DNA from: a virus
Length of the DNA: 13,170 bases
Direction: 5' to 3' (one strand)
UHGV virus genome: UHGV-0063608
Under the pieces are notes generated by a model. That model saw nothing but the letters and a program-made list of their open reading frames with translations, searched no databases and was not told the DNA's origin. Shown here in pieces: positions 1 to 13,170 of the stretch. The stretch's first letter is position 1. Every line of letters starts with the position of its first letter. Position numbers and translations under genes: made by a program.

Positions 1-48
1 AGCACATAATATCCCATTATACGCGCGTATAATGGGATATTAGGTGCT
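1..48. repeat. telRL-like telomere resolution palindrome (protelomerase target), truncated by the window start
   Basis: Positions 1-48 form a near-perfect palindrome centred between 24 and 25 (core CCCATTATACGCGCGTATAATGGG), with one mismatch (a6 versus g43). The right arm continues to 52 (gctgatc), so the left arm probably extends about 4 nt beyond the window. It closely resembles the N15 telRL/telO core as I recall it, and lies just upstream of a protelomerase gene. Confidence 0.8.
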
Positions 49-85
49 GATCTTTAGAACAAAGTCAAGGAACAAATTTTAACGT

Positions 86-124
86 TCCGATATTGTGTTT
101 TTGTTTATTATCCGTTATTGTGTT
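86..124 (+). repeat. Two direct repeats TCCG(A/T)TATTGTGTT flanking the telomere site (tos-like accessory repeats)
   Basis: tccgatattgtgtt at 86-99 and tccgttattgtgtt at 111-124, 25 bp apart, between the palindrome and telN. In N15 the telRL is flanked by short repeats that belong to the telomerase occupancy site. Confidence 0.5.
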
Positions 125-173
125 CTGTTAGTTTGTGACTAAGTTAACGCGTTATTAGTTATCTTATTCTCAA

Positions 174-181
174 ATTGTGTT
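174..181 (+). repeat. Third copy of the ATTGTGTT core just upstream of the telN ribosome-binding site
   Basis: attgtgtt at 174-181 shares the 8-mer core of the two repeats at 86-124; it could be a TelN autoregulatory or occupancy site. Confidence 0.3.
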
Positions 182-215
182 ACGATAATCCGAGCGGATA
201 ATCAGGAGAGGAAAG

Positions 216-2111
216 ATGAGCAAAGTAAAAATCGGTGAATTAATAAACTCACTTGTTAGCGATGTTGAGTCAATAGATAACTCTGACCGTCCTCAAGGGG
301 AAAAAACAAAAAAAATAAAAGCTGTTGCATTAAAATTTAAAAATGCATTATTTAATGACAAGCGAAAGTTTAGGGGGAAAGGATTAGAAAAAAGAATTAC
401 AGCCAACACATTCAATGCCTATATGAGCAGGGCCAGAAAACGGTTTGATGATAAACTTCATCATAGCTTTGAAAAAAATATACATCGCCTATCTGAAAAG
501 TATCCTTTATATAATGAGGAGCTATTATCATGGCTTTCTCTACCTGCTGCCGATATTCGCCAGAGAATGTCAGCTTTACAGGCAAAATTAAAATTAATTC
601 TCCCTTTATCAGAAGATTTATCTAATATCAGAATTGGTGATAACAAAAGTCATAATAAGTTATTAAAATTATCAAACAAATATAAAGAGTGGCAATTCGC
701 CATTTCTGATTTAACTAGCGATAACTGGAAAGATAAGCGCGATTATTTATATAAATTACTACAGCAAGGATCTGCCTTACTTGAGGAGTTGAATCAGCTA
801 AAAGTTAACCATGAGATTCTCTATCATCTTCAACTAAGCCCTGCCGAACGCGCATCTATCCAGCAACGATGGGCGGACGTTCTGCACAATAAGAAACGTA
901 ACGTGGTGGTCATTGATTACCCTAAATATATGCAAGCTATTTACGATATTATAAATAGCCCTGCTACATTAAATAATCTAAACACTCGTTCAGGTATGGC
1001 TCCTTTGGCATTTGCACTTGCTGCATTGTCAGGAAGACGAATGATTGAGATTATGTATCAAGGTACATTCACTGTTTCTGGTAAGTATACCGTTGATTTT
1101 TTAGGCCAAGCTAAAAAAAGAACTTCTGATGATATAACCAGAAAAATATATACATTATGCGAAGCGAAAACATTTGTTTATTTAATAAATGTACTTCGCT
1201 CATGCCCAGCAGCATCTGATTTTGATGATGTCGTTAAAGGTTATGGAGATAACGACACACGCTCTGAAAACGGACGTATTAATGCCATATTAGCAAAGGC
1301 TTTTAACCCGTGGGTTAAATCATTTTTCAAAGATGACCGCCGTGTTTATAAAGATAGTCGTGCTATTTATGCCCGTATTGCGTATGAAATGTTTTTCCGC
1401 GTAGATCCTCGTTGGAAAAATGTAGATGAGGATGTTTTCTTTATGGAAATTTTAGGCCATGACGATGAAAACACTCAATTACACTATAAGCAATTCAAGC
1501 TGGCCAACTTCTCAAAGACATGGAGGCCAAATACTGGAAACGAAAATACCAGGCTGGAAGCATTGCAGCAGCTTGATGACGAAATGCCTGGATTCGCCAG
1601 AGGAGATGCCGGGGTTCGTCTGCATAACACAGTTAAGCAGCTGGTAGAGCAGGACCCCTCTATAAAAATCACGAACAGCACTCTAAGAGCATTCAAATTT
1701 AGCCCAACAATGATTAGTCGATACCTGGAATTTGCTGCTGATGCTCTGGGGCAATTTGTTGGCGAAAATGGACAATGGCAGCTGAAAATTGATACTCCAG
1801 AAATCGTTATGCCTGACGAAGAAGAGCTGGAAGCAATACCTGAACAGGCGGATGAATTATCAGAGGATGACGATCTGGATGACGACGAAATTGAGATAGA
1901 GGAAGAGATAGAGGAAGAGAGCATAGAAGAACAGCAACCGCCCGCGCCTTCTTCACCTGTATCTAAGCCGGTATTTAAGCCAGTGAGAAATATTGGTGAT
2001 GGCTCATACGTTGTCGAGTTTCATTATAATGGCCAGAATTATGCGTGGTCAGGCAGTGCAAACAGCCCCATGTCAGCAATGCAGTTAGCATGGCTGACAT
2101 ATTTCGGCTAA
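216..2111 (+). CDS. telN: Protelomerase (telomere resolvase), tyrosine-recombinase-like
   Basis: 631-aa ORF, the same length as N15 TelN. The N-terminus MSKVKIGELIN... and blocks such as RSGMAPLAFALAA..SGRRMIEIM and NTQLHYKQFKL (active-site Tyr region) match my memory of TelN/TelK. Strong RBS AGGAGAGG upstream of the ATG, acidic C-proximal linker, and the gene sits next to the telRL palindrome. Confidence 0.93.
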   Translation: MSKVKIGELINSLVSDVESIDNSDRPQGEKTKKIKAVALKFKNALFNDKRKFRGKGLEKRITANTFNAYMSRARKRFDDKLHHSFEKNIHRLSEKYPLYNEELLSWLSLPAADIRQRMSALQAKLKLILPLSEDLSNIRIGDNKSHNKLLKLSNKYKEWQFAISDLTSDNWKDKRDYLYKLLQQGSALLEELNQLKVNHEILYHLQLSPAERASIQQRWADVLHNKKRNVVVIDYPKYMQAIYDIINSPATLNNLNTRSGMAPLAFALAALSGRRMIEIMYQGTFTVSGKYTVDFLGQAKKRTSDDITRKIYTLCEAKTFVYLINVLRSCPAASDFDDVVKGYGDNDTRSENGRINAILAKAFNPWVKSFFKDDRRVYKDSRAIYARIAYEMFFRVDPRWKNVDEDVFFMEILGHDDENTQLHYKQFKLANFSKTWRPNTGNENTRLEALQQLDDEMPGFARGDAGVRLHNTVKQLVEQDPSIKITNSTLRAFKFSPTMISRYLEFAADALGQFVGENGQWQLKIDTPEIVMPDEEELEAIPEQADELSEDDDLDDDEIEIEEEIEEESIEEQQPPAPSSPVSKPVFKPVRNIGDGSYVVEFHYNGQNYAWSGSANSPMSAMQLAWLTYFG

Positions 2112-2122
2112 AGCATACGTTA

Positions 2123-2147
2123 AAGGCACCGAATTAATCGGTGCCTT
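2123..2147. terminator. Stem-loop between convergent telN and the antirepressor operon; possible bidirectional terminator
   Basis: 10-bp perfect stem aaggcaccga/tcggtgcctt with a 5-nt loop, 12 nt after the telN stop. The flanking U-tracts are only moderate on either strand. Confidence 0.45.
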
Positions 2148-2283
2148 GTTATGTGGCCTACCTCGCCCACCCCCTGCAAAGGGCAGAAGTAACGGAGGAA
2201 ACGCGGCTGCAACCACAGACATCACCGCCCCGACTGCGAGGCTTCCCCTCACTAAGAAGAGCATAAATTCGGGCTGGCCAACC

Positions 2284-3066: not shown

Positions 3067-3296
3067 TTAGCCTCCTTATTGTGCTGTAATTGCGACGAGA
3101 GAGATGCTGAATACCCCTGTGCTTCGTGTGTTAGCTCACACGCAATTTGAAGGAGCTTCCCGGCTTCTGATAGATAAATCGACGCCTCACAGCTGGATAC
3201 TGTCCGATGGGCTGATGACACGAGCGCATAGACCTGAGCAAGACGTTCATCCAACGACTCCAGCAGGCCAACAGTGTTCATTTTTACCTGATTCAT
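3063..3296 (-). CDS. Hypothetical 77-aa protein, middle gene of the anti-immunity operon
   Basis: ORF with RBS GAGGTGG upstream, translationally coupled at both ends by ATGA overlaps. No recognisable motif. Confidence 0.55.
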   Translation of the reverse strand: MNQVKMNTVGLLESLDERLAQVYALVSSAHRTVSSCEASIYLSEAGKLLQIACELTHEAQGYSASLSSQLQHNKEAK

Positions 3297-3457
3297 GCAG
3301 CCACCTCGCGCACCGGAATACGGGCAGACAATACCAGGACAAACCGGCTGGCGAACTGGCGACGAGCTTCCCGTTCAGATGACGCGATGGTGGAAAGATG
3401 ATGGATATGTGACTTTTTGTCTGTGCGAACGATTGCCGCAAATTTGAATTTGAACAT
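3293..3457 (-). CDS. Small Icd-like protein (putative host cell-division inhibitor), 54 aa
   Basis: Not in the supplied ORF track because it is under 60 aa. Hand translation gives MFKFKFAAIVRTDKKSHIHHLSTIASSEREARRQFASRFVLVLSARIPVREVAA. GGAG lies 8 nt upstream of the ATG and the stop overlaps the next start (ATGA). The pattern F.F.A...R.D ... SE.EAR ... F.L.L.ARIPV matches what I recall of Icd-like proteins that sit upstream of ant genes. Confidence 0.5.
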   Translation of the reverse strand: MFKFKFAAIVRTDKKSHIHHLSTIASSEREARRQFASRFVLVLSARIPVREVAA

Positions 3458-3833: not shown

Positions 3834-4121
3834 TTACTGATTAAGAGATTGGAAATACCTAACTAACTTACCGGCATCATCACATTTTTCTTTATCTTCT
3901 TCCTTAACATAGCCGCGACAAAAGGCTGAATAAAATTTTGCATTTTCAGAAGCAAAAGCAGCCGTCGAAAGGAGCAGTTCTTTGCATGATTCTTTTGATG
4001 CAGCATCGGGATTATTTTTACATGCAAGCTCTGCTGATGAGTCAATAACAGAAATGCTATCTTCCTGGGCATAAACCGCAGCAGAAAAGGCAAAACATAA
4101 AACAAAAATAAAACTCTTCAC
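3834..4121 (-). CDS. Small secreted or periplasmic cysteine-containing protein, unknown function
   Basis: GTG start with strong RBS AGGAG 5 nt upstream. N-terminus MKSFIFVLCFAFSAAVYA-QE is a typical Sec signal peptide with an AxA cleavage site, and the mature part has 4 Cys. The region is markedly AT-rich compared with repA, which is moron-like. Confidence 0.6.
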   Translation of the reverse strand: MKSFIFVLCFAFSAAVYAQEDSISVIDSSAELACKNNPDAASKESCKELLLSTAAFASENAKFYSAFCRGYVKEEDKEKCDDAGKLVRYFQSLNQ

Positions 4122-13109: not shown

Positions 13110-13170
13110 ATGGCGCTGACACCGGCAGAACGGCAAAGGAGACGCAGGGAACGGTTGAAGAAGGAAGGCA
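13110..13170 (+). CDS. N-terminal fragment of a further gene, truncated by the window end
   Basis: ATG at 13110 preceded by AGGAGG with 6-nt spacing; it reads MALTPAERQRRRRERLKKEG... to the window edge. Confidence 0.5.
   Translation, partial: MALTPAERQRRRRERLKKEG

Follow-up and report, generated by a model that had tools for sequence, protein, structure and literature searches.

Bases 1-2,111 of the window, by which we mean the whole 13,170-nucleotide stretch of the virus genome UHGV-0063608 that was analysed, very probably (at about 0.85) constitute the telL end of an Escherichia prophage that is a linear, N15-like phage-plasmid. The first 24 bases would then be a wrap-around copy of telL, as given by a hairpin-ended prophage or by the sequence-identical replicated telLL junction, and not the telR arm of the uncut telRL form. 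Phage-plasmids of the N15 type, together with TelN and their tel site, are textbook knowledge, N15-like phage-plasmids of Escherichia and Shigella have already been described (bioRxiv 10.1101/2025.09.12.675607; PMC7969092), and the finding is biologically ordinary. Its value is methodological: it illustrates the appearance of hairpin telomeres in assembled sequence, and the lineage concerned is a common one in draft assemblies.

The window opens with a zero-spacer palindrome that occupies bases 1-48, with its dyad centre at 24|25 and its start reading AGCACATAATATCCCATTATACGC|GCGTATAATGGGATATTAGGTGCT. The two arms (1-24 and 25-48) are 96% complementary according to the repeat finder, with 23 of 24 positions paired, and bases 13-36 hold the core CCCATTATACGCGCGTATAATGGG. 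A6 and G43 form the one mismatch. These observations reproduce what a preliminary description of this DNA had reported, namely a palindrome of at least 48 bp with this core and one arm mismatch. Assuming uniform base composition, we calculate that at least 23 of 24 pairs would arise at any one centre with a probability of 73/4^24 = 2.6e-13, and by the same arithmetic the roughly 13,000 centres in the window would be expected to yield about 3e-9 such palindromes by chance. In a folding calculation on the single strand, bases 1-52 form one hairpin of -18.9 kcal/mol, compared with -4.4 +/- 1.7 kcal/mol for shuffled sequences (z = -8.5).

Comparison with the 56-bp N15 site and its relatives indicates that the symmetric tel site spans to +/-27 or 28 around the centre, so that the right arm ends at about base 52 and about 4 nt of a full left arm would lie before the window; the same 4-nt shortfall had been suggested in the preliminary description, and it agrees with the extent of the site in N15 and relatives. 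The telO core is common to N15 and 37 viral contigs, and the bases homologous to the window's telL half-site are labelled 'telL site' in the annotation of Escherichia phage PhiR46_1. Here the palindromic tel site with its telO core stands directly upstream of telN. The features of this region are collected in Table 1, in which the cleavage stagger is predicted from the published biochemistry of N15 and TelK.

Table 1. Features at the telomere end of the window.
Feature	Position	Strand	Basis or remark
Left arm, very probably a mirror (wrap-around) copy of the telN-side arm (telL')	1-24	.	0 of 24 differences to the mirrored telL of sister contigs L005, L006 and L010
Central CGCGCG, predicted hairpin tip and predicted 6-bp staggered TelN cleavage site	22-27	.	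centre read from sequence
telL half-site	25-52	+	column-for-column match to the right half of N15 telRL and relatives
telO core half GCGTATAATGGG	25-36	+	within the telL half-site
2-nt spacer AT	37-38	+	within the telL half-site; dinucleotide highly variable among 134 arms
Outer repeat ATTAGGTGCTGATC, consensus ATTATGTGCTGAT	39-52	+	within the telL half-site
G for T at arm position +19, causing the single mismatch with A6	43	+	private to the window
Telomere-telN flank, collinear with the N15 'tos' region	53-215	+	alignment to N15
Three direct repeats, TCCGnTATTGTGTT-like	85-99, 110-124, 167-181	+	direct-repeat family D1; N15 has motifs at matching places
Ribosome-binding site GGAGAGG	directly 5' of the telN ATG	+	
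telN, protelomerase (telomere resolvase), 631 aa, ATG start	216-2,111	+	Pfam, phmmer, tblastn

Degenerate copies of the outer repeat have been described for the N15 TelN target (PMC12624138), and the three repeats in the flank between telomere and telN are probably of the same kind, constituting extra TelN-binding (L1/L2-type) repeats. A sigma-70 promoter scan of bases 49-215 gave no convincing site, and a terminator scan called none on the plus strand 3' of telN.

The longest plus-strand open reading frame at the telomere end of the window is telN, and its product bears out the full-length TelN-like protein that had been proposed for it. All four domains of the TelK/TelN set (TelK_N, TelK_muzzle, ResT-TelK_cat and TelK_stirrup) are present (Pfam, E 1e-25 to 1e-50, far above the cut-offs). 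Against TelK of phiKO2 (2V6E, chain 2v6e_A), phmmer returned E = 2.3e-295 over residues 1-536, a span that covers the N-terminal, muzzle, catalytic and stirrup domains and the catalytic tyrosine; the acidic C-terminal tail of the window's protein (approximately 537-631) lies outside the crystallised construct. In this alignment Tyr424 falls opposite chain residue 445, which corresponds to TelK Tyr425 after a 20-residue alignment offset, and by this homology Tyr424 is the catalytic nucleophile. Identity at the protein level (tblastn) is 97.9% to YDC107_1, 97.8% to PhiR46_1, 78.3% to N15 gp29/TelN (a protein of equal length), 73.1% to phiKO2 and 43.2% to PY54, the last three being phages with which the preliminary description had proposed a comparison. 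The identical TelN protein is recorded in 217 blocks of public assemblies.

Taken as a whole, the window is the telN/repA/immunity arm of a phage-plasmid of E. coli. The element is N15-like (Ravinvirus-type), and public assemblies contain it in abundance. Located 3' of telN are a Bro/anti-repressor, small immunity-region genes, a 1327-aa RepA primase-helicase, a CB-like repressor, Cro, Q and an exonuclease, which together make up the N15 early region and combine a RepA-type primase-helicase with a lambdoid immunity module (CB repressor, Cro, Q). The 1327-aa protein matches the PHROG category 'replication' at E = 0, with a separate match for the repressor; P22_Cro and Phage_antiter_Q were found on the identical gene set of the sister contigs described below; and the window has nucleotide matches to N15 genes 37-40. 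It ends, at base 13,170, inside the early region, and the sister contigs go on to lysis, terminase, portal and tail genes, sopBA and the second telomere. The N15-type telomere-phage signature that had been recognised from the letters of the sequence, a tel site directly upstream of a protelomerase, thus stands on an N15-like backbone.

With N15 itself the window shares the 22-bp telO core CCATTATACGCGCGTATAATGG, the layout of tel site, repeat-bearing flank of about 190 nt and telN, and the downstream repA/cB/cro/Q module. However, at the nucleotide level only 29% of the window resembles N15, with a similarity of about 76%, the outer repeat is ATTATGTGCTGAT here and CTATTGTGTGCTGATA in N15, and the spacer differs as well. 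The N15 reference is also deposited in the phage (telRL) permutation, whereas the window is a telomere-end contig. Much closer is Escherichia phage YDC107_1 (genus Ravinvirus; CP025712.1), with 97.7% nucleotide identity over 97% of the window, and dozens of 45-48 kb 'plasmids' from E. coli, E. albertii, E. fergusonii and Shigella match at 95-97%. When compared with the window as known systems, YDC107_1, PhiR46_1 (PV340565.1) and these plasmids (96-98% nucleotide identity) have the same gene order but differ in the 2-nt arm spacer and in the small accessory genes that separate bro from repA. Among complete E. coli genomes no relative exceeded 99% identity in the first 4.2 kb, and the window's exact lineage at that level (telN-side 4.2 kb) is absent from the phage, plasmid and complete-genome collections searched; this lineage, with spacer AT, was found in draft assemblies alone (L005, L006, L010 and L012). 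Exact-pattern scans of IMG/VR viral contigs, GTDB species-representative genomes and JGI metagenome contigs gave no match to the window's telL arm with either T or G at base 43, and located no second copy of G43.

From the presence of both arms of the palindrome, the preliminary description had concluded that the site was uncut and was not a hairpin telomere end. This conclusion is not supported, because a hairpin read round its tip also yields both arms, and their mere presence therefore does not tell a hairpin from an uncut site. The discriminating test is which arm lies to the left of the centre. Bases 1-24 are the exact mirror of the telN-side arm of the sister contigs and differ at 1 of 24 positions from the mirror of the window's own right arm, whereas they are identical to none of the 38 sopA-side arms in the family. 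The AT spacer at 11-12 is confined to the telN-side arms of this lineage and their mirror copies, and is likewise found in 0 of 38 sopA-side arms. Mirror symmetry past the centre holds at 23 of the 24 positions available, the exception being a base private to the window. Left of position 1, an uncut telRL would be expected to continue into sopA-side sequence (...TCAAGAACA...) and a wrap-around into the mirror (...CTTTGTTCTAAAGATC); on its sop side a telR-telL junction would be expected to read AGCACATAATATCCC, and the sister's sopA-side sequence is ...AAGAACATAACAGCACACAATTCCCC....

Three sister contigs are 99.97-99.98% identical to the window, with 2 (L005), 3 (L006) and 4 (L010) differences in 12,111 bases, and they extend beyond its left edge. 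There the palindrome continues as a mirror for kilobases in L006 and L010 or stops after 24 nt in L005. L006 and L010 are perfect inverted duplications through the window's centre (0 mismatches in 3000 nt), with fold-backs of at least 9.8 kb and at least 4.1 kb, respectively. The 73.5-kb contig of L006 also has the other telomere (L080), which we reached by searching for SopA homologues, following the members of their cluster and matching allele P0122 exactly, and which is again a perfect fold-back. Its sopA-side arm reads ...AACAGCACACAATTCCCCATTATACGC| and has three differences from window bases 1-24, which fall at -13, -14 and -18. Perfect fold-backs at both telomeres of the sisters are, indirectly, the signature that covalently closed hairpin ends in the prophage would leave. 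In assemblies of Borrelia, terminal inverse duplication is accepted as the mark of hairpin telomeres (bioRxiv 10.1101/2025.07.18.665644). Contigs of Borrelia linear replicons pass the hairpin tip and run on into their reverse complement, the inversion point being the telomere, and L006 and L010 do likewise; the window, by contrast with such wrap-arounds, has just 24 nt of duplication and one mismatch.

In the third sister, L005, the same 24 nt past the centre are followed by chromosomal DNA downstream of tdk, within a 2.7-Mb contig. We considered chromosomal integration of the element beside tdk and rejected it in favour of a probable contig concatenation, because the join lies exactly 24 nt past the hairpin centre, because terminase and tail genes are abruptly joined further along in that contig, and because a sister assembly from the same accession series has phage-plasmid DNA abutting unrelated chromosomal genes.

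The scheme of hairpin ends, replication and resolution by TelN is established N15 biology. Applied to this element, the prophage would be a linear duplex with both ends covalently closed as hairpins, and replication would convert each end into a perfect palindrome (telLL and telRR). A TelN dimer would bind the palindrome, make cuts in the two strands, staggered by 6 bp about the centre, by way of a 3'-phosphotyrosyl link formed by Tyr424, and rejoin each strand to its own complement, regenerating two hairpins. Sequencing and assembly would have run round the hairpin tip, or sampled the replicated telLL junction, and the contig would have halted soon after. As a conjecture, the length of the overhang, 24 nt, might come from a de Bruijn self-loop, being (k-1)/2 with k = 49.

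The principal alternative, which we consider very improbable, is a genuine uncut telRL, derived from phage particles, a circular intermediate or freshly injected DNA, in which bases 1-24 are telR and the A6/G43 mismatch is a real difference between the two telomeres. To place the window among its relatives, loci were classed by the orientation of their flanks, which separates true junctions, fold-backs and contig ends in the E. coli group. That group holds 24 true telR|telL junctions, with the sopA-side flank on the left and the telN-side flank on the right, so real junctions do occur in many family assemblies. It also holds nine fold-backs (five telN|telN and four sopA|sopA) and 10 contig ends that halt a few tens of bases past the centre. 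Among all telO-bearing loci, 16 contig ends lie 11-51 nt past the centre, mostly as perfect mirrors.

Several points count against a wrap-around or for an uncut site. The window ends 24 nt past the centre, before the deciding flank. Perfect symmetry would be expected of a true wrap-around, and here one pair is mismatched; genuine telRL sites of the family are typically imperfect, usually with 1-3 arm differences inside +/-24. The contig end L074, whose overhang is 27 nt of the other telomere's arm and not a mirror, illustrates that a mirror copy is not automatic. AGCAC at window bases 1-5 is compatible with some sopA-side arms (L003 and L018), and the telR arm used as the reference is that of a sister genome, in elements whose sop end is mosaic. 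Against the uncut site stand the three differences in 24 positions from the sopA-side arm of a near-identical sister, where the mirrored telN-side arm has none, and the lack of any identical sequence among the family's sopA-side arms. Moreover, the odd base is G43, on the telL side and private to the window, and the supposed telR side is the family consensus, the opposite of what a diverged telR would give.

Read as part of a wrap-around of telL, the mismatch itself calls for an account. Relative to its three sisters, the window has a single private base in more than 12 kb, G43, and by our arithmetic the chance that a random substitution hits the 48-nt palindrome is 0.4% (48/13170). Of 134 arms, 129 have T at position +19, and A6 mirrors this consensus, which places the odd base on the telL side. 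Short-read coverage at a hairpin wrap-around is poor (bioRxiv 10.1101/2025.07.18.665644), and the contig end L051 has T-to-G junk at the same place; we therefore read G43 as probably a base-call or assembly error or a minority allele. A designed asymmetry between A6 and G43 is unlikely, and an error or minority allele is the most likely account in its stead.

We regard it as very improbable that the asymmetry is real, either as a +19 T-to-G change in the outer TelN-binding repeat with the telomere maintained or as an unresolved junction with differing halves. If it were, the window would be a natural experiment on how far TelN tolerates asymmetry or mutation of the outer repeat. It is similarly improbable that the mismatch is biologically real within a hairpin or replicated telomere in that the contig mixes alleles, through a T/G polymorphism at telL +19 or a telLL junction one generation after mutation. 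A consensus left arm joined to a variant right arm is the pattern that an allele mixture or a junction derived from a heteroduplex would leave, and the contig end L053 similarly has one mismatch in an otherwise mirror-image overhang. However, for a k-mer to span both positions, which are 38 nt apart, one molecule would have to carry A6 and G43 together, a state whose lifetime would presumably be one replication round, and a simpler explanation is a technical error where coverage of the hairpin is poor, the junk base of L051 occurring at the same kind of contig end.

An artificial join at the window's edge, arising as a library chimera or scaffolding artefact unrelated to telomere biology, can practically be dismissed: although the same 24 nt abut chromosomal DNA near tdk in L005 in a concatenation-like manner, the centre is the exact telO dyad that N15 has in common with more than 60 related loci, the arm is mirrored precisely, and many independent assemblies fold back at the telO centre, with 5 and 11 further similar places on record.

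More generally, a short palindrome at a contig edge beside a protelomerase gene probably marks a hairpin telomere that has been read round, and should not count as evidence of the uncut phage or circular form. Such wrap-arounds inflate or corrupt public records, and such records should be trimmed at the dyad centre before they are used to type elements, estimate sizes or count genes. Among 'circular' plasmid records, several of 61-91 kb have two places that match the window, and the 'complete genome' of YDC107_1 is another wrap-around case. The fold-back is present in its record, CP025712.1, and in the public record CP088738.1.

The 'complete genome' of Escherichia phage YDC107_1 (CP025712.1, locus L087, whole record), a close named relative of the window, is a fold-back assembly. 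Its telomere centre lies at about record position 36742/36743 and is followed by an inverted copy of ~10 kb that is full of errors, in which the protelomerase is broken into three CDSs and is accompanied by a second Bro and a second RepA in pieces. As annotated, the record contains neither sopA/sopB genes nor a second telomere.

Many plasmid records of 61-91 kb described as 'circular' each hold two matches to the window or two inverted copies of telN; such records include CP088738.1 (77 kb), NZ_CP014491.1, NZ_LT906558.1, CP088562.1, CP088810.1, NZ_CP019258.1, CP088430.1, and others. These records are wrap-around assemblies, 1.3-2x over-length, of an element of ~46 kb, and the one record inspected among them, CP088738.1 (L004), folds back on itself perfectly over 3 kb or more.

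Phage-plasmid DNA also directly adjoins chromosomal genes within Mb-size contigs. For L005 9786 (L005 being one of the near-identical sister contigs of the window) and the related locus L021, both in the 2.7-Mb contig CASDMQ010000024.1 of GCA_949281555.1, the chromosomal neighbours on one side are tdk/hns; for L028, a related locus in GCA_949281495.1, they are CCP_MauG and trehalase. The join between phage-plasmid and chromosome falls exactly 24 nt beyond the hairpin centre, and the arrangement looks like gapless contig concatenation rather than integration.

Within the telomere arms, the dinucleotide separating the telO core from the outer repeat (positions +/-13-14) is hypervariable: across all tel loci, otherwise near-identical elements carry GA, CT, AA, TA, TT, AT, GT, CA, and further variants, and the spacer varies even between phages with identical TelN. 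The spacers of the two telomeres match in some genomes and differ in others, and the non-palindromic bases of N15 lie at this same position. Among species-representative genomes, the exact N15 telO core was found solely in a 46,169-bp contig of Pseudocitrobacter vendiensis (NZ_CALSBS010000033.1, L066). The junction that this contig carries is of the telRL type, with an N15-like flank on the telN side, and puts an element of the N15 kind in Pseudocitrobacter.

Minor features of the window, with window coordinates
Feature	Position	Strand	Remark
Telomere spacer dinucleotide	37-38		mirror copy at 11-12
Repeat in the acidic C-terminal tail of telN	1893-1916		perfect tandem duplication
Terminator-like sequence between convergent telN and bro	2121-2150		putative terminator
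95-aa ORF	3834-4121	-	sole match: PHROG of unknown function
Right edge of the window	13170

The telN tail carries two copies of GAGATAGAGGAA. TelN is 627, 629, 631, 633, 635, 637, or 639 aa long among relatives, a spread that may stem from slippage in this repeat. Downstream, the intergenic sequence has the form GGCACCGA-ATTAA-TCGGTGCC followed by TTGTTAT, and it reads like a bidirectional intrinsic terminator; a consensus scan made no terminator call there.

In the close relative PhiR46_1 (PV340565.1), the place that corresponds to the window's 95-aa ORF, with the Icd-like gene on one side and repA on the other, holds a CDS that is likewise 95 aa long (record 3086-3373) and bears the label 'Spackle exclusion protein' in that record. 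The right edge of the window is not a biological boundary. Beyond it, every sister and related contig has the same sequence (CATCAAGACGGGACTGG...) and leads on to more early genes, then to lysis genes and a lambda-like packaging module.
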